Positions 5,288 to 35,816 of a stretch of DNA of 64,000 nt are shown here, piece after piece. The notes beneath the pieces were generated by a model that saw only the letters and a program-made list of their open reading frames with translations, made no database searches and was not told the DNA's origin. Source of the stretch: a virus (Duplodnaviria > Caudoviricetes); IMG/VR virus record IMGVR_UViG_3300013947_000019, positions 128,001-192,000 of that record; one strand, written 5' to 3'. The position numbers were made by a program, and so were the translations under genes. The stretch's first letter is position 1, and the number at the start of each line of letters is the position of its first letter.

Positions 5288-5544
5288 ATTATATTACCAA
5301 CCTTTCTTTGAGAAAGAATCATCCTCTCAGCCCGAGATACTGAGAGGAATCATCTTTTCTATTTATTGTTATTATTCTTGTTTTACTCTCGGTATATTAT
5401 ATTGTCAATGAAATATTCTTTTACTACTATGCCGAGGTTGATTTCTTCTTAAAATATTTCTCATATAAGAAAACTCGAAAAGAAGAAAATGATAATCTTA
5501 TTAATAAGATAATCAATAATACCTGTCCAGGTATATTGGTTAAC

Positions 5545-6465: not shown

Positions 6466-6478
6466 AAGATTACCTCCT

Positions 6479-7468
6479 TTAAATTCGAACAATGTTCGTA
6501 TAATAAGTCATTGTTGCTCCATTATGAGTTGTTTTTCCAGGACTCATCCCAAGAGGTTTGAAAATTTGCCCAAACAGTTTCATATTATCAGATACCAGAG
6601 TTTCTACATCGATAATAGATAACAACCATTCTGGAACTTCTTCTAACTCACTTGGCATAGCAATTGCTTTGATACCCTTACCCTTCTTAACTTTACCAGT
6701 TGCAGGATCAATGGTATCTCCTACTTCATCATTCTCATCAAATAACTTACAAATCTTCTTATAAATATCTGGCCATCTTTCTAATGGAGCTGCATCTTGT
6801 TTATTTCTTAACTGTACTTTGACCAAAGTAACAGTTGCTGGTAAATCAATTCGTTCTTTATCCGGCATTACATAATTCCAAATAAAGACTGCTTTATACT
6901 GACCAATTCGCATTGGATCTGCATATCCATCAGGAGTCTTTACTCGAATAGATCTCTTCAGATATCCAGTATTACCAGAACGAATTTCATTACCCATTTG
7001 TCTCTGGAAATCATTAATTGTCTTATACGTTCTTCTCAAAGATATCTTTTCATCGGGAGGATCAAGTAATTCACCCATCAATACTTTATCGTAGATAAAC
7101 TTACTTGTATCTTCAGACGCTGTACTCTTAAAGAAGTTAACACCTTTCACATCGATCTTTGGTTCTTTAAAGACAACCTCTTCCTGTCGTTTCTGAAGCC
7201 CAACATAGGACTTCTTGGCAAACGTAACCATAACTCGAGAATAATAAAACTCATTCTTCATATTAATATGCTGTCTATCTTCTTCAGCAATATTTGCAGT
7301 TCCACAATAAAACCACAAACGCTCCATAATTGCTTTTGTACTGAAGTTCGACAATACGTTTAATACACGAAGTTTATACGCTTCTCGATCTGATTTCTTT
7401 CTGAAAAGTTTTCCTTGAAGAACATTTTCGATCAGATATTTATAAAGTGAACCATAATGAAGAAAGTT
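6479..7468 (-). CDS. DNA polymerase family B, polymerase subunit, exon 3
   Basis: Open frame from AAC at 7468 (NFLHYGSL...) continues into ORF 6479..7354; KKSYVG and IDVKGV motifs. Confidence 0.85.
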   Translation of the reverse strand, partial: NFLHYGSLYKYLIENVLQGKLFRKKSDREAYKLRVLNVLSNFSTKAIMERLWFYCGTANIAEEDRQHINMKNEFYYSRVMVTFAKKSYVGLQKRQEEVVFKEPKIDVKGVNFFKSTASEDTSKFIYDKVLMGELLDPPDEKISLRRTYKTINDFQRQMGNEIRSGNTGYLKRSIRVKTPDGYADPMRIGQYKAVFIWNYVMPDKERIDLPATVTLVKVQLRNKQDAAPLERWPDIYKKICKLFDENDEVGDTIDPATGKVKKGKGIKAIAMPSELEEVPEWLLSIIDVETLVSDNMKLFGQIFKPLGMSPGKTTHNGATMTYYTNIVRI

Positions 7469-7851
7469 CCTTGTTTTCAGATAGGGTCGTTATTCCTATC
7501 CCGTTCATAATGAACCGCTTACGGATTTCCCGTAAGAGAAGACTATATCATTCAACCACGCATTGGTGTGGTATATATTCTGCGCTTTGAGCTCACTTAA
7601 GCCCTCACTTACTCACGCTACCCATTACCATGCTAATGGACGCTTTCAATTAGTCGTTGAACCTTCATCCGTTCTGGATGCTTGGCTGCGGGTTAACCAA
7701 TCCTTATCTCTTTTACGATACATCTGGTCTTTCTCCAGATCCATAATCTACATTCCTGTGATTACTTCGTGTATAAGGCTCTAAGGTATAACTTATCATA
7801 AGTTACTTACGTTCCCGTCAATTCACAGAATTTAGAGATTCCCACTTCTTA
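7469..7851 (-). mobile_element. Group I intron 2 of the DNA polymerase gene (383 nt, no ORF)
   Basis: 5' splice site after U with P1 AGATTCT/GGAATCT (U.G pair); P7 elements GTTCAACGACTA and GATATAGTCT; terminal G before AAC. Confidence 0.85.
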
Positions 7852-7860
7852 AGAATCTGT
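7852..7860 (-). CDS. DNA polymerase 9-nt micro-exon 2 (ACA GAT TCT = T-D-S)
   Basis: Restores catalytic motif C IVID-TDS-NFL in frame between exons 1 and 3. Confidence 0.85.
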
Positions 7861-8153
7861 CCTATAGTACCCCTAGTTTCCTAGTATTTAAAAGGGAGTG
7901 GACTATACAATCTCATATGAGTCGGTATTATAGTCTCTGAACGTCTACCACCGGCACTACCCGCTGAGGTATTTCGATGCGTCTGAGTGACTTGCACACT
8001 CGGTTACCCCTGACTTGATTGTTTTTATGGTTTCTGATCTTTTAAAGATATACCGCATTCACGCTTACCGTTTCCGGTTACGTTGTAGCCTATCAAGGTT
8101 ATGGGGGCTTTCCCGCAATTTAACCGATTTTACATCGACTAGATTTCAAGTTA
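7861..8153 (-). mobile_element. Group I intron 1 of the DNA polymerase gene (293 nt, no ORF)
   Basis: 5' splice site after U of GAT with P1 ATCGAT/GTCGAT; P7 elements TTCAGAGACTA and GTATAGTCC; terminal G. Confidence 0.85.
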
Positions 8154-9158
8154 ATCGATAACAATGGTACATTTTCTTTTCTGATATCGAGTTCTATCTT
8201 CATATCGGAAGATACCATGTTTATAAGCTACAAATTCCAAAACCCAATCTGTTAACTTATCAATCATCGGTTTAATCTCTTCCGGCATAATATTTGGATC
8301 GATAAACTCTACATCAGCACATGCTATATCAGAATATAAATAAGCAGGTTTCTTCAAAGATAAAAACTCTCTGATATTTGCTTTATAATATACTCTGATT
8401 CGCATCTCATCACTTAAACTATCATATACCTGACCAATCTCTTCTGGATTACACAATGATTCATGACCAAACTTCTTCGTATATCGATCTATGAACTGTT
8501 GTCGACTTGGACTAATCCCCACAACATCCCATACATCATATTTCCAATCCGGTTCTTCATGAATGATATTATATACCCAGTTATAGAATTCAGTCATATG
8601 GAAGAATAATACATTATCTTCCAATAGATTTTCAAAACATTGACAAGCTGTACTGATCTGTCCACGACCACAGGATGTAACACTCATTGCTGAATGAATG
8701 TTATATAAAAAAGAAGAAGACTGACCTTCTGCACCATATCCTGAGTTTGCGGCCTTTTTATCGTTTGCTTGCTGAAGATCCTTAACCGCTGCTAAGAATT
8801 CATCACCAGCCTGCATTGCTTTAAACTTTTCTTTCTTATGAATCTTACGAATATCAAGCATATCATCCTTGATAATTTCGACATTCACATTACGCTTTTG
8901 CGACTTTGGATAAAAATAAACACCCGACTCAGCAATCAATGGTTTAGAATTCCTAAACCAATCCACTAAACTTAATAGTGTTGCTGATGCCAAAGTGTTT
9001 TCATAATTATTAAAAATCTTTACCTCTGTATCCTTTACGCGTTTTGCATATATCTGTGCAACCATCTCTTCTATCTTACTCTTCTCTACCTCTGGATGAG
9101 TTGCACACATTGCCATTGTCATACGAGAGATCCATTCGTGCTTCATTATCTCTTTCAT
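8154..9158 (-). CDS. DNA polymerase family B, polymerase subunit, exon 1
   Basis: Motif B QQANDKKAANSGYG; ends IVID immediately before intron 1. Confidence 0.85.
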
Positions 9159-9376
9159 ATCAAGGCCTCACCTCCATAATATATAGAAGTTAGTGAAAAT
9201 GTGGAAAAAGAAACGGTTCTATATACAATTAAATATTCAAACATTAATATAAGCATTGTAGTCTGATAAACTGGACACTTATCAGACCGAGAGATGACTG
9301 AATAATGCTAAAAATGCTTGCGCAAGTATTTTTGTCTGTTCAAAAGAATAATCAACATAAGGAGGATTATTGAATT

Positions 9377-9940
9377 ATGAGTAAGTTCCTGAATGACCTC
9401 CGTGCATTTGCCAATCGTGAGGATGATGTGTTCACCAATGAGTCCACTGAGATCGATGGTTTCGATTTCGAGAACGATGAGCAGTTCATGCAGGAGTGCT
9501 ATGCTGCTTGCCTTCCTTCTATTATCCAGAATGAGCTCCTGGGTGAGTCCGCTGAGATGATGGATGAGGCTACCCGTGAGGCTTTTGTTCGTGTTGCTGA
9601 TTACCTGGAAGGCCAGGGTTATCTGCCCATGAGCGAGTCCACTAGTGTCACGCTGAACCAGAAGACCAATGTTATCCATATGGGTAAGGCTGCTACGATC
9701 GCTCGTCTGAAGTCTATTATCACCCTGAAGATGGCTCGTAAGGCTGGTGATCGTAAGTTCACCAAGTATAAGATGGGCTGCAAGATCAAGAAGGATAACA
9801 TGGCTGAGATGAAGAAGAAGTATGGTGATAAGGCTGAGCGCATTGCTAAGAAGCTGTATGCTCAGACTCAGAAGAACCATAAGGTTTCTGGTGCTGTTTC
9901 CGAGAAGAAGGAAGAGATCAAGGCTAATAAGAAGAAGTAA
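9377..9940 (+). CDS. Probable virion (head) protein
   Basis: Strong SD, late-type promoter at 9240, biased codon usage, acidic N-terminus with xxES motifs and basic C-terminus. Confidence 0.5.
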   Translation: MSKFLNDLRAFANREDDVFTNESTEIDGFDFENDEQFMQECYAACLPSIIQNELLGESAEMMDEATREAFVRVADYLEGQGYLPMSESTSVTLNQKTNVIHMGKAATIARLKSIITLKMARKAGDRKFTKYKMGCKIKKDNMAEMKKKYGDKAERIAKKLYAQTQKNHKVSGAVSEKKEEIKANKKK

Positions 9941-9945
9941 TTAAA

Positions 9946-9980
9946 TACTCCCGGGGTTATTCCTCGGGAGTTCTTCTTTT
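9946..9980 (+). terminator. Intrinsic terminator between convergent genes
   Basis: ACTCCCGGGG/CCTCGGGAGT stem followed by a T-rich tract. Confidence 0.7.
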
Positions 9981-10070
9981 AGAAAAAAAAAGAAAATATC
10001 ATTGGAAAGGATGGGAGAGTAGAGGCGGGGGAACCTCTACTCTCCCTATACACGAGAGGCAATCGATTGA

Positions 10071-10841
10071 TTACTCCTCGGTATTCTTGTTATGATACTT
10101 CTTCTCGAGCTCAGCTTCCTTATCCTGCTCGATACTCTTCATGGTGACATTATCGTAGTGATTGATGACACGCTTGAAGATCTCGGTAGTGATCTCAACA
10201 GCATCATCGAGATCGACATTGGTCAGAGAACTGACAACAATGTCACCTACATGATGCATATACTCTTCAGGATCATCTGCAGTATCCAGACCAGCGATAA
10301 TCTTATCACTGATCTCATCCATGATTGCATCGGCATCGATGTCTTCCTTCTCTTCGACAGGATTCATCATATCCTTGAAGCAACCCCATGCGGAGTTCTG
10401 CAGAGCATCCAGATCGAAGTCTTCGATCATCTCCATCAGCGCTTCAGACATAGCCTCAGCACGAGAGCTGAGAAGCGCGGTCAGATCATCCAGCTCATCC
10501 TCATGCTTCTTGCAGAAAGCAACGATGTAGGGCAGGATGTCAGCCAGGAACTTCTTGTAGAAAGACAGAACCTTCAGAATGAGCTTGGTATCCATCTCCA
10601 CATTTACGGTGATATCATCCTTGCGGGCGATATACTCCATAGTGAAGTCCTTGTTGCCCATACCGCCAGAGGTTTCCAGCTTGTCCATAAAGGAGTCAAA
10701 GCTGGAGGACATGTTGAACATTTCAGCATATTCCTCATCGATCTGAGGCAGGACGGCATTCAGCACAGTCTTGGACAGGGCATTGAAAGAATCGCACAGG
10801 GACTTGATCTCGCTCTTGGTCATAGTAACAGAGTATTTCAT
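10071..10841 (-). CDS. Hypothetical acidic protein (early-type promoter)
   Basis: ORF with biased codons; ATG at 10841 after AAAGGA. Confidence 0.7.
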   Translation of the reverse strand: MKYSVTMTKSEIKSLCDSFNALSKTVLNAVLPQIDEEYAEMFNMSSSFDSFMDKLETSGGMGNKDFTMEYIARKDDITVNVEMDTKLILKVLSFYKKFLADILPYIVAFCKKHEDELDDLTALLSSRAEAMSEALMEMIEDFDLDALQNSAWGCFKDMMNPVEEKEDIDADAIMDEISDKIIAGLDTADDPEEYMHHVGDIVVSSLTNVDLDDAVEITTEIFKRVINHYDNVTMKSIEQDKEAELEKKYHNKNTEE

Positions 10842-11068
10842 AGTAATTCCTTTCCGGCTCATTGGCCTAACCCTTTCGGGCTCTTTTGTTTATTTATCCA
10901 TCACAGGTAAATTTGATGGACTGATTATGTATTTTGATAGGTATTCTTTGTTCCTATCACAATTATAGTATATATCTCCACACCCTGTTAAAATCGGATT
11001 TTTAAATATGTATAAAATGATGCTTTTAAAGACAATATAATATAGTATTACAGTGGAGGTAATATGGT

Positions 11069-14568: not shown

Positions 14569-16791
14569 TTACCAACTGTAGAGATTACTCCAATCATCTC
14601 CACCACCAACATTAACACCCATCTGGCCATATGCAGGATCTACAAAGGTATTAAGTAAATTTTCATTCATATCAGTGGAACGCATGGAGTAATAGTTCTT
14701 CATAATAAGACGTTGCGTAGAATCGGGTATACTCTCAATAGCTGATAAAGTTGGATCTTCATCCAGATCAATACCTTCTATTTGATCTAGTGCTCGATAA
14801 TATTCAGCACGTTCACGTTCTGCAAGAGAAGAACTTGTTTCACAAGGTTGTTCAGTACTCAAGAAGTCAACGAGTCGATCTTCTTCATTTTCTTCTCTAT
14901 GATCAATAATGATTCGTTTAGCATTTCTCCAGGAATCACGAGTATCATATTTCTCAACATCATCATCTTCACCTTCAGTGATTGTCCAATAGATACCCTT
15001 ATTCTTTAAACCAGTACCATAACGTACCACCCACAGAATACCAAGATATGCCATTGTACAGTCATCGTGTGTAGAAGCAGAGTGATCAATACGACCATTC
15101 CGGAGTTCCATATACCGAATCTCTTCATAGAGTTCAGGGAATGCTACATGAGATGGAGAATTATGAACAATATTCTCCAACATTTCCATCATCTGTGCAC
15201 GAGAAGTAGGATTGGTATTATGACCATATTCCAATACTTCTTTATGCTTCTTCTTGGTAGCAGCATTGACACCCATGTCAATCTCTTTCTTCTTACGTTC
15301 CTTATACAGAACTCGTCCAACGGCTGTATCTCGTAGATGATCAATTAATGGTTTACCAACCGAGTTATTTTCGATCGTTAAGACACAGTTAGGATATACC
15401 TTCGTAACCAATGTAATTAATAGTTTCTTTAATTGGTCAGAAGGGATCATATTGGATTTAAAGAAAGCAATGGGCATTAATGTTTCAGGATGTACCACAA
15501 CCACTGCAGTACTATCTCGACCAAGACCACCAGAAACGTCGACACCGATTAACACTGGCTTACGACCATGATATTCTTGATAGATATTCAGATTGAAGTA
15601 TTTATTGATCTTGACTACTTCTGCAGTACCACGACGCTGCATAGACAGATCACCAATAACTTCAATATCATCTGGGTCAAATGGAGAGTTACCATTAGAG
15701 TTAATCCACTCAAGCAGATACTCACGACGTGCACGAATCGGATTATTCATCTTCTTAGCACGATCTAAATACCAATCATCAGTTTCACCGAGCTGTAGGT
15801 GCGAGAACTGAATAAATACGAAACCAGTTTTATCCGGTGTATTATAAATAATATCATAGAGTTTCTTTCTCTTCCAAGTATACATCTCTTCCTGGAAAGG
15901 AATAGAATCTTCCATCATCTTATATGCAAATGCTCCATGTGGTGTAGCTAAATCGCCAGGAGTGGTGGTAATACTAATTGCATATGGTGTCTGGTTCTTT
16001 TCAGAAATTTCTCGAGCTTTTTCGTATGCAGGCGTAGATGCACCATACATCGCTTCATTAAAGAATATGAAGGCCAACTCGTCCCACCAAATCTTAGATG
16101 CAGTTTTACCACGGGCCATAGAGTCTGCTTTGGCTTCGTTACCGGCAGATGCCATAGCTTCAATCGTTGCATTAATGGTGTTTCGAATTGTCTTTTCATT
16201 ATTCTTCACTCGGCGTTTTTCAGAAGGATCAAGTTGATCGATATTAGAGTGCTGCATGTACATAGGCAGCATCTTAATAGCATCAGAAATACGTCTGACG
16301 TTCATATTAGCATCAGATTGGTTTTTATTAAAGTGTAAGATATTAGAACCACGTACAAACTGATGTGTCCATACACAGTCAGCAATAGCAGCCCAAGTTT
16401 TACCAGTCTGTCGAGGCATAATTAAATAGGCAGAAATATTTAAACTCATTGCCCATAGGTATGCCAGGTTACCACGGTTCAATAAGAAAGGAGAACCACC
16501 ACCAACTTCAGTGGAGGCACCAGATTCAGAGACTCTGAATATTTCTCGATAGAAGTACCATCTGTTTTCTGCACATTCCCGGAATATCATGAAGCGTTCT
16601 TCGTCTGTGATATCCGGATCATAGGGATCTACTCCCTGCAGCTTTTTATTATTTAATCCAAGGAAAAAGAAATTATCAATACCTTCCTGATAAAGCACTG
16701 CAGCGATCTTAATAAACGATTTATTTTTCGTTTTAAGGTCGACATAGTACTCAGTCAAGTATTGATTGTTTGACTGTTTAACCATGCCCAT
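14569..16791 (-). CDS. terL: Terminase large subunit
   Basis: Walker A MPRQTGKT, Walker B IWWDE, motif III TTTPG, nuclease IGVDVSGG and HDDCTMA. Confidence 0.9.
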   Translation of the reverse strand: MGMVKQSNNQYLTEYYVDLKTKNKSFIKIAAVLYQEGIDNFFFLGLNNKKLQGVDPYDPDITDEERFMIFRECAENRWYFYREIFRVSESGASTEVGGGSPFLLNRGNLAYLWAMSLNISAYLIMPRQTGKTWAAIADCVWTHQFVRGSNILHFNKNQSDANMNVRRISDAIKMLPMYMQHSNIDQLDPSEKRRVKNNEKTIRNTINATIEAMASAGNEAKADSMARGKTASKIWWDELAFIFFNEAMYGASTPAYEKAREISEKNQTPYAISITTTPGDLATPHGAFAYKMMEDSIPFQEEMYTWKRKKLYDIIYNTPDKTGFVFIQFSHLQLGETDDWYLDRAKKMNNPIRARREYLLEWINSNGNSPFDPDDIEVIGDLSMQRRGTAEVVKINKYFNLNIYQEYHGRKPVLIGVDVSGGLGRDSTAVVVVHPETLMPIAFFKSNMIPSDQLKKLLITLVTKVYPNCVLTIENNSVGKPLIDHLRDTAVGRVLYKERKKKEIDMGVNAATKKKHKEVLEYGHNTNPTSRAQMMEMLENIVHNSPSHVAFPELYEEIRYMELRNGRIDHSASTHDDCTMAYLGILWVVRYGTGLKNKGIYWTITEGEDDDVEKYDTRDSWRNAKRIIIDHREENEEDRLVDFLSTEQPCETSSSLAERERAEYYRALDQIEGIDLDEDPTLSAIESIPDSTQRLIMKNYYSMRSTDMNENLLNTFVDPAYGQMGVNVGGGDDWSNLYSW

Positions 16792-16892
16792 ATGGAGTCT
16801 CACCCCTATCATAGGTTATTACTTAATTATAGTTATGTTTCAGATAAATAAAAAGAAGCTTCCCTCTCCAATTAAGGAGAGGGTTGTATAAA

Positions 16893-18200
16893 TTACATTA
16901 TAGACAATAATTCCATTGATTTATTTATGGATTTTGTACAATTATACTTTTTGTTTTTCTTATCTATATATGGAAATGGGTTACTACGTTTAATTCTTTT
17001 CTTTAATATAATAAATCCGTCTTTATCTCTATTTTGTTTAGGTCTCAATTGAATAAATCCATTCTTATCTCGTTGTGTTGAATCATATGAACTTAATTTC
17101 ATAGATTCTTCTTTATTGATCTTTTTCAATGCTTTCTGATGAGCATTCTCTCCATTATGCGATGTTGCATATTGGCTATAAGCATACCATGATTGATGTG
17201 ATTCAAATGCTTTAATCATTTCTAATTTTCCGAATTTTACTAGCTGTAGTATCTTATTGGTTTTCTTTAGCATTCGATTGATATTCTTTTTCAATAACGA
17301 TATATCTACATCATGGGTTATATTATTATAAGTAAAATGAAATCCTAAATAAACTAATCCTTGTGAAAATGGATGAATATTTGATTTTGGGTTTAGCTTT
17401 AAGTTCAAATTATCTTCAATAAATTTTCTAATCTCTTTTATACAATATTGTAAATAATTCTTATCCTTATGTATAATATAAAAATTATCCATATATCTCC
17501 CATAATATTTTATATGTAATTTTTCTTTTATAAAATGATCAAGTGAGTTTAAATAATAAACAGCTAGCCATTGAGATGTTTGAAACCCTATACAGATTCC
17601 CTTATCTGATCCATCATATTCACCAATAGCATATACTTGTTTTCTAATGAGTTCTATGCACTGATCATCAATTGGAAGTTTCTTTATTTGATTCATACAG
17701 ATCTCTCTGTCTATCTCATAGAAATAATGATGTATATCACCTGAAAATATCCAACCATCATTATTCCAATTACATTCTGTTGCTGCGTAAGATCTCATAA
17801 AATGTGATAATCTATCTAATGCTAATTTAGACCCTTTACCAGGTTGACTAGCGTAATTATCATATATTAATTTTGGGCTTATAATAGGCTCTAATATTTT
17901 AGTGCAAGCAACTCGATGTATAATTTTATCTTCAAACTGATTTGCAGTAATATTTCTTTTCTTAGGTTCATAAATTATAAAAGAATATAGTTTCTTAATT
18001 TTATAAGTATTCTCCATAAGTTGTTTACAGATATCATATGATTTAGAAAATATATCAGTATGAAATTCTGCAGTAGTATGCTGACCTTTCTTTCCATTCT
18101 CTACATAATATGCACTACTTAATATATTAGAAAACCTCATAGCATCACTGAAGTCTATAAATTTTTTATCTTTATTCTTTTTCTTTTTATTCTTACTCAT
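16893..18200 (-). CDS. DGR reverse transcriptase (catalytic motif YMDN, possibly inactive)
   Basis: EPKKRNI, DKIIHR, GDIHHYF, GICIGFQTSQ (DGR-type SQ), RYMDNF, YLGF; adjacent to TR and avd. Confidence 0.9.
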   Translation of the reverse strand: MSKNKKKKNKDKKFIDFSDAMRFSNILSSAYYVENGKKGQHTTAEFHTDIFSKSYDICKQLMENTYKIKKLYSFIIYEPKKRNITANQFEDKIIHRVACTKILEPIISPKLIYDNYASQPGKGSKLALDRLSHFMRSYAATECNWNNDGWIFSGDIHHYFYEIDREICMNQIKKLPIDDQCIELIRKQVYAIGEYDGSDKGICIGFQTSQWLAVYYLNSLDHFIKEKLHIKYYGRYMDNFYIIHKDKNYLQYCIKEIRKFIEDNLNLKLNPKSNIHPFSQGLVYLGFHFTYNNITHDVDISLLKKNINRMLKKTNKILQLVKFGKLEMIKAFESHQSWYAYSQYATSHNGENAHQKALKKINKEESMKLSSYDSTQRDKNGFIQLRPKQNRDKDGFIILKKRIKRSNPFPYIDKKNKKYNCTKSINKSMELLSIM

Positions 18201-18452
18201 TAGGTTTTATAACTCCTTAAAACTGTTTTTGAAAAAGAATTGCCCACCCTGGTCCACAGGGTGAGTGTCTCTAATCAGATAAATTACTCTAAGTTTTAAT
18301 TAAATAAAACTACGATACATCTATCTGTGCCGGGTACATTCTCCGAATATGAAATTCGGATAGGATGTAGTCTCCTTAGTTCTTTCGGACGCATTTCATC
18401 TTAACCAGCAATGGGTTTCAATTACTTTTTCTGCCTACTTAAATGAACCAAT

Positions 18453-18545
18453 CGGGCGAAACCCATTGCTATTGCTAGGGTTGTTGTTGTTGATCGTTCC
18501 ATCACTGTTCACATTGTAAACATTGCTGCTACTGTTAGGAGACGA
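18453..18545 (-). ncRNA. DGR template repeat (TR) core
   Basis: 93-nt non-coding AAC-rich copy of the VR; all 15 mismatches fall at TR adenines. Confidence 0.95.
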
Positions 18546-18576
18546 AACTAACAGACTACATCCTTTATTACAATGT

Positions 18577-19122
18577 TTACAACTTCTTTATTAATGTATA
18601 AAACCCTTCAGAATCTCTATAGTAATCACCTAAGGAAACAATTTCATTAAGTTTAGTTATTTTATATTGAAGCATATCATGTTTACGCTTCTTATAGTAT
18701 TCTTTCTTAGTTGGATAACTATTAAATTTAGATTTTATATTGCTATAGTATGCTTGTAAACTTTTAGTTAATTCGCTATATAATCTAGCATATTCTTCAG
18801 GATTTTTAAGTGTAATAATACTATTCGTAACAATCATCAATGCTCCTAAATGTCTAGCCATATCTATAGAATATTCTATCTTCTTAAGTTTCTTTTTTAA
18901 TTCTTTAAGATAATTAGGATGCATATTTGCTGCTTCAATTATACTTGTTTCTAACTCAAGTGCAGTATTATGAAGTTTCTGAACTAAATCATATCTATAT
19001 CTTTTTGGAAATACATTATCATTATTTGTAATTAAAAAGATATACTTTGTTAATGCTTCTGCTTTAAATACAACTGCAATTGGATTTTTCTTTCTTTTCA
19101 TTTGTATACTAGATCTTCCCAT
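18577..19122 (-). CDS. avd: DGR accessory variability determinant (Avd-like four-helix bundle)
   Basis: FPKRYRYDLVQKL motif, basic helical protein, located between target gene and TR. Confidence 0.8.
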   Translation of the reverse strand: MGRSSIQMKRKKNPIAVVFKAEALTKYIFLITNNDNVFPKRYRYDLVQKLHNTALELETSIIEAANMHPNYLKELKKKLKKIEYSIDMARHLGALMIVTNSIITLKNPEEYARLYSELTKSLQAYYSNIKSKFNSYPTKKEYYKKRKHDMLQYKITKLNEIVSLGDYYRDSEGFYTLIKKL

Positions 19123-19228
19123 AAAAATTACTCCTTTTAAAAATATTTAAATAATATATGATAGACGATATACAGGATTTTTAATATCCTATATAAACGT
19201 CTATCATATATTCAAAAATAAATTATAG

Positions 19229-19309
19229 CTTCAATTAACGATTATTACGCTATCTGGCGGGCAATGACTTACGCATTTGCCTTGATAGCTTCATTTACGT
19301 TAATTGAAG
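19229..19309. other. Long imperfect hairpin/cruciform just downstream of the VR
   Basis: 12-bp IR CTTCAATTAACG (19229-19240 / 19298-19309) with inner stems GCTATC/GATAGC and GGCAATG/CATTTGCC. Confidence 0.55.
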
Positions 19310-20368
19310 AGTTATACACACATGCGGGCGAAACCCACCGCTAGAGCTAGGGCGGTTGTAGTCGATCGTACCATCACTGATCACACCGTAAACATAGCTG
19401 CTACCGTAAGGAGACGATGTCCACCAATACTTAGCTGAACCATTTAAATTACAAATTCTGTTAGTATTACTATTGTAATAACTAAATCCTCCATTAACCT
19501 GTTCATATGAAGGAATAAATACTTTATTAGTAACATTATTAACTGTAACATCATTACAGTATTCCAATGCAGTAGCAGACAAATTAGAACTTTGCCAACT
19601 CACACATTTATTAGCTAAAGTGGAACCCTTATATGTATTATTACTACCAAAAGAAGTAGTTTCTGTCATTTCAGCTAATCCTAAATACCAATGTGTACCT
19701 TCCTGATGAACAACTCTCCATTCTTTATTGTCAAAGGTGACTATATTACCGACCGCAACAGTTCCACTAATAGGAATAAATACAAGTTCGACAAAATAGT
19801 CATTGGTATCTTCCGTTACTGTAACTTGTTTACTATCAGTTTTTCCGTTAAATGTACCAGATATGGTCCAAGTACCAGTATAATCGCTTCCAGGTAATTC
19901 AATTTTTGCTTTTCCTAAGGAACTGACATACGAACTATATACAGTAATACTACCTTTTGTTGCACTAAAAGTTGTATTATATGCAACACTTGGAACAGTA
20001 ACCCATATACTTTTACCAGATCCAGTAGATACTACAATTGAATCAATATTAGATGCCATTGTTTCAAATGATGCATCAGATGCTGTAGGAACACCTTTAC
20101 CGGTAATAGAGGTAGCTATCATTCTCTTACCATAAAGAATTAATTCATTAGCATTCATATCGTAATCAGTCAGCTCCTCTTTTGTTACAAATTTTTCCAT
20201 TTGTGTATTTACATTTTGAAAACTAATATCTACTGCATCTAATTTAGTTTTTACAGTTGTTTCATCAGTTTCTGATAATGATACATTATCAGCATCTGTT
20301 TTTAAATGAATTTCATCATAAGTGCCACTATCATTTTTACGATTAAGTTTCTGTTTTAAAATAGCCAT
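19295..20368 (-). CDS. DGR target: tail-fibre/receptor-binding protein with C-terminal CLec-like variable domain
   Basis: MAILKQ N-module, ITGKGVPT module, C-terminal YWWTSSP...GFRP containing the VR. Confidence 0.85.
   Translation of the reverse strand: MAILKQKLNRKNDSGTYDEIHLKTDADNVSLSETDETTVKTKLDAVDISFQNVNTQMEKFVTKEELTDYDMNANELILYGKRMIATSITGKGVPTASDASFETMASNIDSIVVSTGSGKSIWVTVPSVAYNTTFSATKGSITVYSSYVSSLGKAKIELPGSDYTGTWTISGTFNGKTDSKQVTVTEDTNDYFVELVFIPISGTVAVGNIVTFDNKEWRVVHQEGTHWYLGLAEMTETTSFGSNNTYKGSTLANKCVSWQSSNLSATALEYCNDVTVNNVTNKVFIPSYEQVNGGFSYYNSNTNRICNLNGSAKYWWTSSPYGSSYVYGVISDGTIDYNRPSSSGGFRPHVCITLQLT
19325..19417 (-). repeat. DGR variable repeat (VR)
   Basis: Aligns gap-free with TR 18453-18545; differences only at TR A positions. 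Confidence 0.95.
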
Positions 20369-20418
20369 AATATTGTTTTAAACTCCTTTCTTATTATAAA
20401 AAGATGAATGTTAAAATA

Positions 20419-20442
20419 GGCCCAACTTCAGAAATCCGGGTC
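20419..20442 (-). repeat. 24-bp recombination-like site 1 (upstream of DGR target)
   Basis: + strand GGCCCAACTTC-AG-AAATCCGGGTC. Confidence 0.7.
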
Positions 20443-20496
20443 TAGGTCAAATAAAGAAAAAAAAAGAAAATATAGGGAGGAGCCGAAGCCCCTCCC
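20428..20496. repeat. 69-bp perfect direct repeat, copy 1 (site arm plus terminator)
   Basis: Identical to 57806-57874. Confidence 0.9.
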
Positions 20497-20506
20497 TATT
20501 ATTTAT

Positions 20507-22159
20507 TTAATTTTCTTTTGTTTCAACCATTGTATTAATTCTGTTTACAGGAAATCCTGCAGCACCAGGATGACCGCCACCACCATTCAATACAGCAACA
20601 TCATAACAGTTGATATTGTTTGTATTATTGGGATTAACAGTCAGTTGGCAGATCATTTTCCCTTCATCATTTGGTTGGAAGATCATACTCATATCAATAT
20701 GCCTTCCCTGTGCATCCATATTCTTCATTGCCAACTTAGCAAAAGTATGAACATTTACTTCCTCAGGAAGCTTATTACGATGAACCTGATAAAGGATATG
20801 ATAATTCTTATCCTCAGGGAAATCTACCAGCATAGTAGCGGGTTCACCCGCAGTATCATATCCCATAAAGATATAATTCTTATGCGGTTTAGTTTCATCA
20901 ATAAGTTCTTCGCAGTAAGAGTGCAGAAAACCGGTATACTCGACATTCATACTATAGATCATCTGTACGACATTATTGACAAAAGAATATACAATATTGG
21001 GCTGCTCAACAAACTGTCTAATTTCTTTTTCTACACTATTATCTATCAAATTCTTAGATCCACAGATCGGACATCTGATATATTCTGTATCTGTAGCATA
21101 ATCATATATTCTCTGGGGAATGATTTGTCCACAGTTAATACATGTATGTGTATTATGATCCTCCATCTGTGAATCAGTATAATATATCTGAAGGATAATA
21201 GCTTCGAAAACATTCTCAATAAAATATCGATACGCAACACCAGGATCTAGCTTTTTGACATGTCGATACAGTTCAGCGTTCAGAATAATCTGAGGACTTA
21301 CATGTTGAATAATAGCCTTAATATAATCGATTTTGGGACTATTCGCCAATTCATCCAGATCAATAAGGAAATTGCCCTGTCGTCCAAGATCATATTCATT
21401 TACGTAGTAGAAATAATCTTTTACGATAGAACTATCCGACAGCCTGTCACATATATTTTTGTCTGTCCAATCGATCTTATTGGCCAGAATGAACCACAAC
21501 ATGCTAGCACAATAGCTGTTACAGATGAACATATCGACAGAAACATGCGAATTATATTTATTGGTAAATTCCTGATGGGCTGTAGTCGCAGTAACAGCGA
21601 TATCATTCTTAGGTTTGAACTCAAAGCTACCACAGCTCAGCTTATATGGATCATCACCAAGGCTAAATCTATTATAATAATCTACAGAAGATTCAGCAGG
21701 TGCAAATGGAGAGGTATCAATCTTCGTATACTTAGACTGATGATGATCAATGACGATAAAATGAATATTCTTTGGATTAAATTCACAGTACTCATCTGAG
21801 CATAGAAGAGAGTTTTCTGCGATATCATTCAATTTCTCGATTTCGATAGAACCAAAATCAGTAATCAGAATCCAGAGATCTTCGATTTTAGTTTTATACA
21901 TTTTTTGCATGCGTACCCATTTCTGGATAGTACTGTTAATGACATCATACAGCTCAGGAACCATCTTGGATGTATACACAGTATCAACATACTGTGTTCT
22001 GATGATACGTTCAGGACCAAGGTGATCTACCAAAGCGCAGGATACTCCATCCAGATCAGTATGTGTAATATGGATGAAGTTTCGATAATACTCTTTTTCA
22101 ACACCTTTCTTCATGTCTCGCAGGGAATTTACAAAGCGAATAGAATTGACAATAGACAT
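20507..22159 (-). CDS. DHH/DHHA1 family phosphoesterase with zinc-ribbon insertion
   Basis: HTDLDG, ITDF, IDHH, GGGHPGAAG; CINC...CPIC insertion. Confidence 0.8.
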   Translation of the reverse strand: MSIVNSIRFVNSLRDMKKGVEKEYYRNFIHITHTDLDGVSCALVDHLGPERIIRTQYVDTVYTSKMVPELYDVINSTIQKWVRMQKMYKTKIEDLWILITDFGSIEIEKLNDIAENSLLCSDEYCEFNPKNIHFIVIDHHQSKYTKIDTSPFAPAESSVDYYNRFSLGDDPYKLSCGSFEFKPKNDIAVTATTAHQEFTNKYNSHVSVDMFICNSYCASMLWFILANKIDWTDKNICDRLSDSSIVKDYFYYVNEYDLGRQGNFLIDLDELANSPKIDYIKAIIQHVSPQIILNAELYRHVKKLDPGVAYRYFIENVFEAIILQIYYTDSQMEDHNTHTCINCGQIIPQRIYDYATDTEYIRCPICGSKNLIDNSVEKEIRQFVEQPNIVYSFVNNVVQMIYSMNVEYTGFLHSYCEELIDETKPHKNYIFMGYDTAGEPATMLVDFPEDKNYHILYQVHRNKLPEEVNVHTFAKLAMKNMDAQGRHIDMSMIFQPNDEGKMICQLTVNPNNTNNINCYDVAVLNGGGGHPGAAGFPVNRINTMVETKEN

Positions 22160-22234
22160 AATATTATTCTCCTTTTAAAGTATTTTTATGGAAAAGAAAG
22201 TAGACAGGAGATTTAATTTCTCCTGTCTACTATT

Positions 22235-22244
22235 ATAATATATA
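22235..22244 (-). promoter_or_regulatory. Early-type phage promoter motif TATATA(T/C)TAT (representative copy)
   Basis: Also at 1527, 10965, 29610, 35767 (1 mismatch), 42523 and 61438; all intergenic, minus strand, upstream of gene clusters. Confidence 0.6.
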
Positions 22245-22270
22245 CTTCAAATATTGTTCAAAAATGGAAC

Positions 22271-22792
22271 TCAGTTTAATCCCTTGGTAATATCATCGAG
22301 TACCAGATCACCCTCATCGGGACCCTGTACATCATCGGCATCATCTACCAAAGGAATGTTGCCCATCTCATTGGTATCCATCTGAGCAGGGAATCCACGA
22401 GATGCCCAGACATCCAGGAAATGCAGCTCATCGATATAAGATGTCAGAACCACTTCATCCTGATAATAGGGATAGCAAGCACGACGAGTACCAGTATGGC
22501 CCATGCTAGCACCATAGAAGATAAACTCCTTCAGGATATTCTCACAGCAAGGCAGATACAGAGTACTGGTAGTATCATACTTACCGCTCTTGATAGCAAG
22601 CTCCTGAGGAACCAGCATCTCATACTGAGAAACGGTACCAAGAGTCTGATGGCGCATCTGAACCTTCAGATCCAAACTACGACGCAGACAGGCACTAGCC
22701 TCTTCGATAAACTTCAAACCAGCCAAAGGTTTCTCACTCTTAATCAGAAACTTATCAGGCGTTTCCGGAATAAGAATAAGTTTAAACTCCAT
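22271..22792 (-). CDS. Hypothetical protein
   Basis: 173-aa ORF with SD and late-type promoter. Confidence 0.7.
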   Translation of the reverse strand: MEFKLILIPETPDKFLIKSEKPLAGLKFIEEASACLRRSLDLKVQMRHQTLGTVSQYEMLVPQELAIKSGKYDTTSTLYLPCCENILKEFIFYGASMGHTGTRRACYPYYQDEVVLTSYIDELHFLDVWASRGFPAQMDTNEMGNIPLVDDADDVQGPDEGDLVLDDITKGLN

Positions 22793-22866
22793 AAATTCAC
22801 CCCATTCCTATAGGAAAGTATTGGAAAGAAATAATCATTACCCTTATATGTATGTCCAATGTTAAA

Positions 22867-23094
22867 TCAGTCATACTTACTAGATGGTCCTTGTGCAGCT
22901 AAGAAGTTGCGCATTAATTTATCTATAATACGACCTTCTGAAGTATTACAAGCAATTGCCATCTGTGTAATATGATAAGCAGTTTGCGATGTTACATGAT
23001 AATTCTTTCTGATGATCCTAGGTTTATGTGGATCGAAAGTAGTATCTGAACCCTGCTTATTGGTAGGTTTATGATTATGGGGTTTCGTTTTCAT
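22867..23094 (-). CDS. Small hypothetical protein
   Basis: 75-aa ORF with AAGGAG SD. Confidence 0.55.
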   Translation of the reverse strand: MKTKPHNHKPTNKQGSDTTFDPHKPRIIRKNYHVTSQTAYHITQMAIACNTSEGRIIDKLMRNFLAAQGPSSKYD

Positions 23095-23142
23095 ATCAAC
23101 AAATCTCCTTGTCCGATATGATACTCGAAGATGAATTAATTA

Positions 23143-23796
23143 TTACTCTTCAGAATCGTTAATAGGCTCATCTTCGAAAGTAGTAGCACTAGACTGGGCA
23201 GCCTTTTCAGCAGCCTCAGCTGCAGCAGCTCTACGAGCAGCACGACGTTCAGCCTTAGTCATCCCAGCATAGGGATTGGGAGTAGACTCAGTTTTAACTT
23301 CAACGGTTTCTGTATCAACGACAGGAGTCTCAGTCTCTGGAATTTCATCCACGGGATCAGCAATAGGAGCAACCTCCTCTTCCTTGATCTCAGTATTTGT
23401 ATTATCTTCAGTAGTCTCCACCACCGAGTTTTCAGGCTCTTCAACAACCGGGGAACTCGGAACCACAACAGGATCAGTTACTACAGGAGTAACAGGAATG
23501 GGCTCTTTCATAACAATCGTCTTTCCTTCGTCAGCAGGATCCATACCAGCAATCTCTTCATAAGAGAGACGATAGTTCTCAAGAGTCAAACGAACAGGAT
23601 CACTAAAGACCTTGGGTTTGTCAGTCGGAATAACCTCATATACAGTAACCTTCTCACGACCGGTCTGCTGCAGCAGACCTCCAATTACATCAATTGGAGT
23701 ACGAGTAGGCTGAGTCAGAGGACCATGTTCCGGACCGAAACAACTATGCATAGCATACAGGGGAGCATATTCCGGAATCAGAATATATTTGGTCAT
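23143..23796 (-). CDS. Hypothetical protein with acidic P/E/V/T-rich tail
   Basis: 217-aa ORF, GAGGTG SD. Confidence 0.7.
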   Translation of the reverse strand: MTKYILIPEYAPLYAMHSCFGPEHGPLTQPTRTPIDVIGGLLQQTGREKVTVYEVIPTDKPKVFSDPVRLTLENYRLSYEEIAGMDPADEGKTIVMKEPIPVTPVVTDPVVVPSSPVVEEPENSVVETTEDNTNTEIKEEEVAPIADPVDEIPETETPVVDTETVEVKTESTPNPYAGMTKAERRAARRAAAAEAAEKAAQSSATTFEDEPINDSEE

Positions 23797-23898
23797 GTTG
23801 TTTTCACCTCATACATATTAGAGTTTATAAACCATATCCTGGATCTCATTACAAGACCCAGGATATTAATGGTTATTCAAGTTTCTTGTATTAGAAAA

Positions 23899-24501
23899 TT
23901 ACTTATCTTCCTTCTTATCAGGCATATTATCAACTTTCTCCTTGAGTTTTTCGATTTCCTTAGTCATCTTATCATAACCAGCTAAGATTTGTGCACGAGA
24001 ATAGCCAGCACCACGAGCAATACCAAACATCAACTCAAGGAAAGCATTCTTCTTACGTTCAGGATGTTTATTAGAATACTGAGCACCCTTATCCACCTGA
24101 TTTCTAAGAGTGAGCCAGTTGGAAATGAAACCAACCCGGTATGCAATAATACCGAAATAAGGAATAATGGACATGACCATACTGATTACAATATGCTCAA
24201 GGAATCCATCATCTTCAATTTCTTCAGCTTCTTTGCGACCCTTTTTAATAAGTTCTAATGCTTTATCCAAATGCTTTTTAGCATTTTTCTTATCGCCATC
24301 TTTAATAGCAGAAGAAGCAGCCTTAGCCTCATCACGAACATCTTTTGCAGTACCCATCAGTGCATGTTTAATGGACTGAAATGCACCCTTATTGACTTCA
24401 TTCATAACATCAGCACACTCGAGCATAGCAGTGCCACCAAACATACGTACAGCTTCAACATCACAGCCCTCAGAAATAGCTCTCAGATCAACAAGTTCCA
24501 T
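23899..24501 (-). CDS. Probable virion protein
   Basis: 200-aa ORF with N-terminal xxE motifs and a hydrophobic segment. Confidence 0.5.
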   Translation of the reverse strand: MELVDLRAISEGCDVEAVRMFGGTAMLECADVMNEVNKGAFQSIKHALMGTAKDVRDEAKAASSAIKDGDKKNAKKHLDKALELIKKGRKEAEEIEDDGFLEHIVISMVMSIIPYFGIIAYRVGFISNWLTLRNQVDKGAQYSNKHPERKKNAFLELMFGIARGAGYSRAQILAGYDKMTKEIEKLKEKVDNMPDKKEDK

Positions 24502-24520
24502 ATTATTTTACCCCATTTCT

Positions 24521-24952
24521 TTACATATTTTCAAGATCTTCCATCATTTCGCAAGACAGATCCAGACCCTCATCACTCATAAAGCGAGGCTGATCCTTCA
24601 CACCATCACGAATATCCTTATTCGGATGACCAATCTTCTCATCATCATACCAAGGACCCTTACAAGCCTCAGTAATCACAACATTAATCTCATTCTCCTC
24701 GGAATCATCATCCAGCATCTCATCGATCGTCTCATCATCGATACCATCGCCGATGATCTTATCAAGAGCACTGTCGACTTTATTCATGACCTCAGGAGGA
24801 ATGGAATCCACATCGATCTCGGCATCCAGATCATCTTCATCTTCCGGATCCAGATACTCTTCCTCAGCATTCAGCACGGATTCCAGGATCAATTCATTCT
24901 CCTGCTCTTCACGCTTAGCCTTGTTAAAAGCTTCATTCAAGCCTTGCAGCAT
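24521..24952 (-). CDS. Highly acidic protein, probable head/scaffold component
   Basis: D/E-rich; LNEA, ILES and ITEA motifs; late-type promoter. Confidence 0.5.
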   Translation of the reverse strand: MLQGLNEAFNKAKREEQENELILESVLNAEEEYLDPEDEDDLDAEIDVDSIPPEVMNKVDSALDKIIGDGIDDETIDEMLDDDSEENEINVVITEACKGPWYDDEKIGHPNKDIRDGVKDQPRFMSDEGLDLSCEMMEDLENM

Positions 24953-25002
24953 TATGTCATACCACCTTTCTATAGTGTCGTATTATATGTTTGTTCTCAT
25001 GT

Positions 25003-26319
25003 TTATTTCTGAAGCCCCTGAATATACTTCTTATATGCACCTAAAATAATAGGAATCAAGAAATAGTTTTCACAAGTCTTCTTATCTTCAACGACCAGGT
25101 TTTCCCAGTCGATATCTTCTTTATTCCACCAAGCAATGATTGCATTTCTTAAATGGGGGTTATAATCACTTTTAACCTCTTCACCGTTGATATATTCACA
25201 TCCAGTGCATTGGCAGTTCATCTTTTCGTCAAACCATTCGGTTTCATACTTGTCATTATTCACAATCCGCTGCATGAATTCATCATCCCATTCAGGGCAC
25301 GTCGTACACATCAGATTGCAATCACAAGTAGTACCATAGTTTTCAAAGTAGATTAAATGCTTACCTTTCCATTTACCAATTCGAGGATCCATACTATAAG
25401 ATTGTGGATATTTAAACTCATCAATCTTATTCTTATGATCCTGCGAGTATAACCGATACAGAATTGATCTGCGATAGGTATAATCATCGATATAAATATC
25501 GGGACAACTCATATAGATTGGTTGGATATTCATCTTATAGTTATTGATTGCATAGAAGATCAAGCTATCATAAATAACAATACCTTCATCAAACATCATT
25601 TTCCATAAGGTAATATCCAGGAAAGCATATGTAGCATCAGTTTCTTTATCATATATTCCGTCATAGATAAATGCAGAACGAGTACGATCATAGAAAAGCA
25701 TACGATACATATCTGCCAGGTTCACATAGTTCTTGACATGATCTTGAATTTGGAAATAAGATTCTTTCTTGATCACTAAGTTCTTATCAGCACCCAGAGC
25801 AGACACTGTCATCATATAATTATCTTTTACTTGTTTCTTAAGTAAAGCAATTTGATTAACATCTCGACTAAATAATCTGAAAGAAACTTCTACAAAGGGA
25901 TTACTCCGTGCAGTCGTCATGGTTACCCCATCTACAATATATAAAGCAGGAACTTGTGACCCATTAATGGTAAACATATCTCCTTCTTTAGGTACAATTG
26001 TATTTGGGAAAATAATACCCTGACTCTGCAGGTTTTCCTCATGACCAAGCTCTTCATCAAACTCAGACTGTGTTACCAGATTATCGATACCCGACATAGG
26101 AAGGTTTTCAATCTCATTATATACAAGATTAGAAGTCGGTCCAATATAATCTTCAATATTACGGAATCCACCAATGGTAGTGGATAGATCTGCATCTACC
26201 GAGAAGTAGTCTACAAAAAGTTGTGGTGTCTGTAATACGGTTGCAGCATTGGATAATTCATTGGCAATATAATTATCCGACTGCCGTTGAATGATATCCT
26301 GCTGACTGATAATTTTCAT
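25003..26319 (-). CDS. Probable virion structural protein
   Basis: 438-aa ORF, AGGAGG SD, late-type promoter at 26369-26380. Confidence 0.5.
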   Translation of the reverse strand: MKIISQQDIIQRQSDNYIANELSNAATVLQTPQLFVDYFSVDADLSTTIGGFRNIEDYIGPTSNLVYNEIENLPMSGIDNLVTQSEFDEELGHEENLQSQGIIFPNTIVPKEGDMFTINGSQVPALYIVDGVTMTTARSNPFVEVSFRLFSRDVNQIALLKKQVKDNYMMTVSALGADKNLVIKKESYFQIQDHVKNYVNLADMYRMLFYDRTRSAFIYDGIYDKETDATYAFLDITLWKMMFDEGIVIYDSLIFYAINNYKMNIQPIYMSCPDIYIDDYTYRRSILYRLYSQDHKNKIDEFKYPQSYSMDPRIGKWKGKHLIYFENYGTTCDCNLMCTTCPEWDDEFMQRIVNNDKYETEWFDEKMNCQCTGCEYINGEEVKSDYNPHLRNAIIAWWNKEDIDWENLVVEDKKTCENYFLIPIILGAYKKYIQGLQK

Positions 26320-26441
26320 AGACTATTTCACCTCCTATTTTTACCGGATTTTCTCGGATATCTCTTTATATAGTAATGTTTTCTGTATCCTTTAGTATAA
26401 AAGATCCCTCTCCTGAGAAAGGAGAGGGAAGATTTATTTTA

Positions 26442-27155
26442 TTAAGAGAATGTAATTTCATTAGTAGAATAATCAAAATAAAAAGTAATTGAATATACAT
26501 TATCATTTATCATAGTAAATCCTAAATCTTTAGTATTACCCACACCAACATCAATTGTAGCTAGGTTTTCATAAAATAATAAATCATTTTTAAATACCAT
26601 TTTAGATATATTTAATGTTAATTTATGATAATTGGTATTTGCTGATACATATACTTTACTATACCCAGAACCAGTAATATTATTTATTGAATACGATCTA
26701 TCAGTTGATAGGTTTGTACCAGCTGTGTATATAGTATTACCGTTTATTACCGGTAATGTGGCAATACTATTTTTAAGCAATGCTCCATTAACAGAATTTA
26801 AATTTATAACTGGTAAGCTACTAATATTTCTTATATTATCAGCCATAGTTTGGAAAGTCGCCGAACTGGCAGTGCTAACACCCTTGTCAGTAATCGCACT
26901 AGCTATAAGCGACTTTCCATTACTGACAGATATTTTTACCTCATTTAATTGTGCAGTAGTAGCATAGCTACCTACTGGTTGATATACACCACTATGATTG
27001 TGGTTAGCAGCAGCGTATGAACCAGCAGGTTGGTATATTCCATTATGGTTATGATTGGCTGCTGCATAGTTTGATGGATTGATAGATCTAGATGTACCAT
27101 CATTTCCTTTATATATTAAACTCGTCTGGCCAGTCACGAGCTGGCCGGAACTCAG
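26442..27155 (-). CDS. Headless tail-fibre cassette A (no SD; frame begins inside the 24-bp site)
   Basis: Frame LSSGQLVTGQTSLIYKG starts at the CT of site 2 with an in-frame TGA just upstream; YAAANHNH repeats and ITDKGV module. Confidence 0.7.
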   Translation of the reverse strand: MSSGQLVTGQTSLIYKGNDGTSRSINPSNYAAANHNHNGIYQPAGSYAAANHNHSGVYQPVGSYATTAQLNEVKISVSNGKSLIASAITDKGVSTASSATFQTMADNIRNISSLPVINLNSVNGALLKNSIATLPVINGNTIYTAGTNLSTDRSYSINNITGSGYSKVYVSANTNYHKLTLNISKMVFKNDLLFYENLATIDVGVGNTKDLGFTMINDNVYSITFYFDYSTNEITFS

Positions 27156-35705: not shown

Positions 35706-35816
35706 GTCTCTTCACTCCCTTTATTCATATTATTTGATAGACATACCCTTCTATTCTATCATAATTATAATATATGGATGAATTTTGTTTGCTCGGAGTT
35801 AACATAATAATACAAT

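Follow-up and report, generated by a model that had tools for sequence, protein, structure and literature searches.

To our knowledge, DGRs and fibre-inversion switches are two known programmed ways of changing a phage receptor-binding protein, and they have been described separately. In the Min system of the plasmid prophage p15B, the Gin/G segment of Mu and the Cin/C segment of P1, a serine recombinase acts at dyad sites within a tail-fibre gene, each having a 2-bp core, and inversion joins a constant N-terminal part to alternative C-terminal parts. Multi-cassette inversion at a tail-fibre gene's distal end has been reported for the Rin shufflon of Bifidobacterium and Eggerthella prophages, the configurations of which are found in metagenomic reads (PMC8778435), and multi-cassette tail-fibre inversion also for the compact shufflon (about 1.7 kb) of BV01-like phages (PMC13596623). 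In Eggerthella prophages, the shufflon and the DGR belong to different prophage clades and are not combined (PMC8778435). A search of the literature on DGRs with shufflons, invertases, DNA inversion or jumbo phages yielded no paper in which both are coupled.

This study concerns a window of 64,000 nucleotides (positions 128,001 to 192,000 of IMG/VR virus record IMGVR_UViG_3300013947_000019) from the 260-kb genome of a gut jumbo phage, here referred to as G000. It contains a 3.6-kb DGR block (site, leader, target, avd, TR, RT and terminator) that is likely to be one of the cassettes in an inversion switch for tail fibres, which works at genome scale and is operated by a serine recombinase, with rewriting of the fibre tip as a second layer. 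As in Gin, Cin and Min, a serine recombinase of the resolvase/invertase family is encoded, which would act on the cassette sites, and these are 11-2-11 dyads with a CT core, inverted relative to an expression locus (E) and placed inside the fibre reading frame. Unlike in those systems, the recombinase has 404 aa, versus about 190 aa (catalytic domain and C-terminal HTH) in the classical enzymes; the cassettes are scattered among essential genes across about 66 kb, and the inversions cover from 5 to at least 26 kb; every cassette comes with a terminator of its own; and a second class appears to consist of whole-gene cassettes working by transcriptional fusion, one of which is a complete DGR. 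The Rin and BV01-like shufflons differ in being compact and without a DGR.

The DGR itself has the gene order of that of Bordetella phage BPP-1 (Mtd, Avd, TR, bRT), namely target, avd, TR and RT, and shares with BPP-1 and Treponema TvpA adenine-specific TR-to-VR mutagenesis directed at a receptor-binding protein, in its C-terminal tip of lectin fold. It differs from both in that recombinase sites lie on either side of the whole element, which is found at different places in the genome, that the target has no start of its own in some lineages, and that the RT box is YMDN in this clade.

Structure of the DGR and its target fibre

The sequence-only reading had placed target, avd, TR and RT together behind a site and a terminator. 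This layout is confirmed, and a complete DGR occupies 16893-20368 on the minus strand, with the following features.

16862-16883, minus strand: terminator at the end of the DGR cassette, a short way upstream of the late promoter of TerL, AACATAACTATAAT (16826-16839)
16893-18200, minus strand: RT, 435 aa (RVT_1, 2.3e-11; IGFQTSQ motif)
18243-18265, minus strand: hairpin and T-run between TR and RT
18453-18545, minus strand: TR, 93 nt with 31 adenines
18577-19122, minus strand: Avd-like accessory gene, 181 aa (phrog_3206 'Avd protein of DGR', 1.3e-8)
19153-19210, minus strand: inverted repeat between target and avd, kept across lineages (alignment of G000, G001, L104 and L111)
19295-20368, minus strand: DGR target, forming a complete tail-fibre gene that has an SD of its own, a MAILKQ N-module and a C-type-lectin-like variable tip
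19325-19417, minus strand: VR, at the 3' end of the target gene

The catalytic box of the RT reads YMDN, not YMDD, as it does in the six closest homologues. Relatives of this RT were found in IMG/VR only in the genomes G001 (91% identity) and G003, and none were found in JGI metagenomes. The Avd-like gene matches Pfam bAvd at 1e-4, below the curated cut-off (23 bits, cut-off 40), and NF033474 at 6e-6, also below it (26, cut-off 80).

TR and VR are mismatched at 15 of 93 positions, all 15 of them TR adenines, and no second VR was found in the 260-kb genome. When five target homologues were aligned, the variable columns were those of the VR. G003 is 99.25% identical to G000 over 11.7 kb and has an identical TR, with 19 differences in or just beside the VR (19339-19432); because the VR differs while the TR does not in so close a genome, the DGR is active. 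The model of the target has pLDDT > 90 over residues 200-357, and aligns with TvpA (2y3c; Z 8.2, rmsd 3.7, 122 residues aligned), with many C-type lectin domains (Z 6.4-7.8) and with 9qa6 (Z 15.2; all VIA-align), which places the VR in a predicted C-terminal tip of C-type-lectin fold. A Foldseek search with the whole target model gave no match at E <= 0.001.

Recombination sites and complete-gene cassettes

Two further features precede the target and its leader.

20419-20442, minus strand: cassette recombination site, 24 bp, 11-2-11, with the central CT at 20430-20431
20472-20499, minus strand: intrinsic terminator (12-bp stem with 7 GC pairs, T-run) that insulates the cassette from the upstream DHH gene

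The degenerate 24-mer has four matches versus none in 100 shuffles, so the site is beyond chance. Across the genome, eight clear cassette sites were recognized, every one of them on the minus strand, and all cassettes, including that of the DGR, lie behind a strong terminator; the sites at 20419 and 57797 are 89% identical over 91 nt with the terminator included. A first search, even genome-wide, found no inverted copies of the site. The inverted partner is a divergent half-site in E, which was traced by synteny with G001; the synteny of G000 with this genome breaks at 20427, within the site.

Short stop-terminated frames, reported from the sequence alone at three sites, were recovered as LKLGLF (20419, the only site at which this peptide is read), LKLGQSGGSIHF (54458) and LVFGR (51733, a degenerate site); downstream of each come an SD and a gene whose product begins MA(I/V)LKQ. 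In-frame fusions at other cassettes read ...PESL(K/S)(S/T)GQ.... For the ORFs without a start, GTG starts were considered and rejected, as were translational bypass, frameshift, splicing and integron-like excision, since two cassettes have no GTG and fusions with E exist.

The expression locus and the candidate recombinase

The proposed partner of the cassettes and the enzyme that may act on them lie further along the window.

34491-35705, minus strand: candidate recombinase of the serine type, 404 aa (PF00239, 2.7e-29; phrog_125 'DNA invertase', 8e-50)
46210-46229, plus strand: AACATAAACGTTTTTATAAT, upstream of E and after a terminator, also present before E in G001
46260-46432, plus strand: expression locus E; its N-module, MATLKQ...SVPESL, finishes within the E site (46420-46443; central CT 46431-46432)

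E is joined to many different cassettes in other assemblies, and because E has the plus-strand orientation and the eight cassette sites the opposite one, a single inversion separates any given cassette from E. By sequence, the 34491-35705 protein relates to Sin/Bin3, gamma-delta resolvase and the DNA-invertase chains 4m6f/3uj3. No Pfam family was matched by its C-terminal 239 residues (about 166-404), and the similarity to phrog_125 extends only up to residue 226. It is the sole recombinase in the genome; unlike in a strict shufflon of the R64 Rci type, no tyrosine recombinase (PF00589) was detected in the whole 260 kb. As the sole candidate, at twice the size of a classical invertase, it is probably the protein that exchanges strands at the cassette sites, and its gene is kept beside the system, also in the deeper-branching contig L124.

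E::DGR junctions and stored states in relatives

The proposal made from the sequence alone that the entire DGR is a switchable cassette is strongly supported by natural E::DGR junctions at the central CT in related genomes. In G001, E is joined at the CT to the entire DGR block (82.8% identity to window positions 20427 down to 16847), and the RT is followed by the same terminator and then by a full site. The same junction at the CT is present in the L111-L114 group (8 contigs from at least 4 samples), and further E::DGR junction peptides are P0156, P0184, P0190 and P0194. The junction peptide predicted for the species of G000 (E N-module followed by KLGLF) is matched exactly by P0183 (7 contigs, the longest of 259,631 bp), and it is from this peptide that the 26-kb inversion is proposed for this species. 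The DGR is stored in G000, G003 and L104, and the state changes repeatedly among G000, L104, L111 and G001; L103, L105, L106 and L107 were left out of this comparison, as these contigs end before the target. In L104 as well as G001, a site is present on both flanks of the DGR block. More than one rearrangement step separates G001 from G000, including a translocated 6-kb block.

E is also found joined to other cassettes. Contig L117, with 99.86% identity, carries a 5.3-kb inversion at the same CT that joins E to the cassette at 51733 (junction peptide P0154); E and site 51733 share almost nothing beyond the CT, which argues against homologous recombination. P0157 is a junction of E with a cassette like that at 54458, and in the P0163 lineage E is joined to a non-DGR cassette. 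With E joined to the DGR, to the 51733 cassette and to a 54458-like cassette, the second class suggested earlier, complete genes used by transcriptional fusion, gains support. The L117 inversion and the P0183 junction together indicate that alternative orientations are present within one species.

Contigs L124 and L125, of a deeper lineage, have E and the DGR target as one in-frame fusion. In L126 of that lineage, the target is stored without a start, and 14 of 16 VR mismatches are at TR adenines; the stored target sits behind a terminator. Because this target has no start of its own, its translation depends on E. A DGR with two states within one species, and a sister lineage in which the stored target lacks a start, make a natural case for asking whether DGR activity is regulated.

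A proposed two-layer switch

The cassette in this window is in the stored state, on the minus strand and behind the terminator of the early DHH gene. A serine recombinase, probably that encoded at 34491-35705, would exchange strands at the central CT of the 24-bp sites, and a single inversion between CT 20430-20431 and CT 46431-46432 (26 kb) would place the promoter and N-module of E directly upstream of this cassette. Translation from E would in that case stop past ...PESLKLGLF, with the fibre read from the SD and ATG of its own gene, so that E::DGR would be a transcriptional fusion. As a second layer, the DGR would rewrite the lectin-like tip of that fibre at adenine-templated positions. A whole DGR would be one unit of an inversion switch, stored and E-joined within one species, and the system lets one ask how discrete fibre types combine with near-continuous variation of one fibre. 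In these gut jumbo phages, which are abundant, gene callers and DGR finders are expected to miss or mis-annotate E peptides that are truncated and targets that lack a start.

The stored copy would be less expressed, and the output of RT, Avd and TR RNA would change with the state of the cassette. Whether the switch also gates the DGR is a tentative extension. The fibre, and perhaps Avd, TR RNA and RT, may be strongly transcribed only at E, in which case hypermutation would fall mainly on the displayed and selected fibre, a stored VR would be a frozen memory, and a two-tier system (inversion for coarse changes, retro-mutagenesis for fine ones) would be kept across a gut jumbo phage clade. Against gating, the VR differs between G000 and G003, both of which have the DGR stored.

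Leader motifs and alternative explanations

That divergence fits a rather doubtful alternative, in which the DGR moves as a cassette and is constantly expressed from its own promoters. The switch would then only set the output of E, E::DGR would be mainly a parked state with a truncated E peptide, and the DGR would be ungated. A minus-strand TATAAT at 20393-20398, flagged in the sequence-only reading as a possible promoter, indeed lies in the target leader, within the following feature.

20393-20412, minus strand: AACATTCATCTTTTTATAAT, candidate own promoter of the target, present only in this lineage

AACA-N6-TTTTTATAAT occurs only twice in 260 kb, before the DGR target and before E (46210-46229), and this exclusive sharing is in line with constitutive expression. 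The TTTTTATAAT motif, which may be the cassette's own promoter, is created by a 12-nt insertion that is confined to the G000/G003 lineage, in which the stored state is observed; ahead of the target it is missing from G001 and L111, both of which have the DGR at E. A near-match to the early-promoter motif of the phage also precedes avd (19144-19160). However, the motif is absent in L104 too, where the DGR is stored; the spacing in the DGR and E leaders is AACA-N10-TATAAT versus AACA-N4-TATAAT in the late-promoter consensus of the phage (derived from an AACA-N6-T(A/G) scan); and the AACA before E is not kept in L111. The strong terminator ahead of all cassettes, that of the DGR included, and the stored target without any start codon in the deeper lineage likewise speak against constant expression. 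A sigma-70 promoter scan of 16700-20700 gave matches no more than shuffles and none in the leader, and a crude analysis of AACA positions for the late promoter gave no motif.

Returning to the reading of the DGR block as a cassette of a programmed switch, it is very improbable that the DGR positions reflect rare evolutionary rearrangements by homologous or illegitimate recombination at short repeats. The identity shared by sites 20419 and 57797 would be enough for homologous exchange, G001 and G000 are more than one step apart, and G003 carries a foreign cassette at site 27143. Nevertheless, the same CT is used even where almost no other bases are shared, as between E and site 51733 in a 99.86%-identical genome, two states are recorded within one species, the state has changed repeatedly among G000, L104, L111 and G001, and the neighbouring gene for a serine recombinase is conserved, in L124 as well. 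Least credible of all is that the repeat serves the fibre genes as a promoter, an operator or an RNA hairpin: although it is an imperfect palindrome between terminator and gene start, a layout compatible with an operator, it does not match the AR9-type early and late promoter motifs used elsewhere in the phage, and the synteny breakpoints and in-frame protein fusions of many assemblies map exactly to its centre.

The DGR block and its activity

The sequence-only reading had placed the target, avd, TR and RT together behind a site and a terminator; this arrangement was borne out, and the order of the elements on the minus strand was confirmed as follows.

20472-20499, minus: terminator with a 12-bp stem, first in the order of the block
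20419-20442, minus: 24-bp cassette site, after the terminator and followed by the leader
19295-20368, minus: fibre gene (DGR target), 357 aa, starting MAILKQ
19325-19417, minus: VR, within the target
18577-19122, minus: Avd-like gene, after the target
18453-18545, minus: TR, after the Avd-like gene
16893-18200, minus: reverse transcriptase (RVT_1)
16862-16883, minus: closing terminator, after the RT

TR and VR have 15 mismatches over 93 positions, each at a TR adenine, and a search of the whole genome found no VR besides 19325-19417. The related phage G003 is 99.25% identical to the window genome (88 differences over 11.7 kb); its TR is unchanged, and 19 of the 88 differences lie in or just beside the VR. 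The adenine-confined mismatches and the divergence of the G003 VR under an identical TR show a genuine DGR that is active. The C-terminal 160 residues of the target were modelled at pLDDT above 90, and many C-type lectin domains align with the modelled C-terminus, as does the DGR target TvpA (2y3c) at Z 8.2. Compared with a standard DGR, that of the window phage is ordinary apart from its RT, in which, as in the five closest homologues (P0034-P0039), the catalytic box is YMDN or YVDN, not YMDD; 92 more distant homologues carry YMDDF. The VR divergence suggests that an RT with a YMDN-type box still works.

In G003 (L083) and in the related contig L104, the VR has 3 nt (one codon) more than the TR within an AAC-repeat stretch, i.e., a TR-VR indel and not a substitution. 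A long inverted repeat (ATATGATAGACG...CGTCTATCATAT, 19153-19210) between target and avd is kept in the window phage, G001, L104 and L111, with variable loop and downstream bases. Two DUF6273 domains, lectin-like and homologous to the target tip (60-76% nucleotide identity), are encoded by a 669-aa fibre gene (47787-49796); with no TR to match them, they are non-diversified paralogues.

Sites, expression locus and recombinase

The genome has eight clear copies of the cassette site, every one of them on the minus strand and preceded by a terminator and T-run. This same-strand layout was considered as a bar to inversion and dropped when a divergent plus-strand partner was found inside gene 46254-47462, in E, the expression locus of the fibre N-module. 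The N-module MATLKQ...SVPESL (46260-46432) ends ...GCCAGAAAGC/CT/AACGCACGGCC and runs on in frame into a cassette. According to the junction table, all rearrangements share this CT as the joining point; the right arm always comes from a cassette, and the left arm from E or from the terminator side. A core of 2 bp is consistent with a serine recombinase; exactly one recombinase is encoded in the genome (34491-35705, 404 aa, Resolvase domain, phrog_125 'DNA invertase' match at 8e-50), and no tyrosine recombinase was found in the whole genome. Three sites are followed by short stop-terminated frames and then complete genes, just as had been described.

Operation of the switch

In proteins of other assemblies, the E N-module is fused to varied cassettes, always via ...PESL(K/S/T)(S/T)GQ...; P0002 and P0004 join it to homologues of the window's start-less ORFs at sites 27143 and 57797, respectively. 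In L117, a contig 99.86% identical to the window genome, E is joined to the degenerate site 51733 by a 5.3-kb inversion, for which homologous recombination is unlikely because the two sites share little beyond CT. The inversion to site 27143, 19 kb long, is seen in another contig, L110, where the neighbouring block is inverted as well.

At site 27143, G003 differs in its cassette; the breakpoints fall on the end of the site and on the stop codon. In this 99%-identical genome, a complete MAILKQ gene (L002 2282-3325) replaces the 231-aa ORF without a start. It has no copy anywhere in the window phage's genome. Cassettes are also exchanged between phages. DHH and other ordinary genes form a 6-kb block (20532-26442) between sites 20419 and 27143, and its counterpart in the related genome G001 (5031-10939) lies between two other sites; therefore, non-fibre genes travel as passengers of the switch.

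The DGR block as a probable switch cassette

That the DGR is itself a switchable cassette, as the sequence-only reading proposed, is very probable and is upheld by E::DGR junctions at CT in G001, in L111-L114 and in several peptides. In G001 (256 kb, ~83-88% identity), the whole block (window 20427 back to 16847) follows the E homologue at CT; the E frame ends ...SLSSGLFIHSFQ and a stop, and the target begins from its own SD. The 8 contigs of the L111-L114 group (at least 4 samples, ~89% identity) have the same junction, as do peptides P0156, P0184 (24 contigs), P0190 and P0194. For the window phage's own species, the predicted product of E and site 20419 (the first 58 residues of P0154 plus KLGLF, 63 aa) is exactly matched by P0183 (on 7 contigs of up to 259,631 bp); LKLGLF with its stop can be read in this genome only at site 20419. 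The DGR is stored behind the DHH terminator in the window phage, G003 and L104. Together with the joined junctions, this points to both states in one species, alternating among lineages, the joined state there being read from the P0183 peptide. The block is flanked by sites on both sides in L104 and G001, which have a further site after the RT terminator. Between RT and TerL, the window has just a terminator and the TerL late promoter. At this place, L104 (9311-10012) has an extra site and a 226-aa start-less cassette.

Dependence of DGR expression on the switch

Dependence of DGR expression on the switch seems somewhat improbable in the window phage. Leaders of other complete-gene cassettes span 15-25 nt; the DGR leader of the window phage and G003 carries an extra CTTTTTATAATAA, yielding AACATTCATCTTTTTATAAT, whose only genome match is AACATAAACGTTTTTATAAT before E. 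The motif is missing before the target in G001 and L111, where the DGR sits at E, which would fit a promoter of its own gained by the stored cassette. The stored DGR of L104 lacks it as well, and the spacing of the motif is off the late-promoter consensus. The VR has diverged between the window phage and G003, both with a stored DGR; the state may have flipped between them during this divergence.

In a deeper lineage (E N-module ~72% identical), the target lacks its own start. L124 and L125 have it joined to E by an in-frame fusion across the site, with avd, TR, RT, a terminator and then the next site behind it. In L126, a different cassette is fused to E, and the start-less target sits behind TerL and a terminator; of the 16 mismatches in its VR, 14 fall on TR adenines. 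Translation of the target in this lineage depends on the switch.

Comparison with known systems

The switch resembles Min, Gin and Cin in its candidate serine recombinase, 2-bp core and constant head joined to variable tips, but it is dispersed over ~66 kb, uses whole-gene cassettes as well, and has a candidate recombinase of double the usual size. It is not a Rci-type shufflon. Compact phage shufflons and phage DGRs have both been published (PMC8778435, PMC13596623); a literature search for a shufflon or inversion switch linked to a DGR in one system found no such paper.

The phage and its promoter motifs

The window (bases 128001-192000) belongs to a single phage contig of 259,863 bp, whose large terminase is closest (~33% identity) to those of PBS1/AR9-type Bacillus and Staphylococcus jumbo phages. 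In AR9, early genes have the published consensus AAATATATATTAT-(6N)-G, and late genes have AACA-(6N)-T(A/G) (PMC5312081). AR9-like motifs are used here, the late one as AACA-N4-TATAAT (e.g., 16826-16839, before TerL) and early ones of TATATATTATA type at 22226, 29601 and 42514. Minus-strand near-matches to the early motif (CATATATTAT...) directly precede the serine recombinase gene (at 35759-35776) and avd (at 19144-19160). A tRNA-Leu gene (anticodon TAG) occupies 245-329 on the minus strand.
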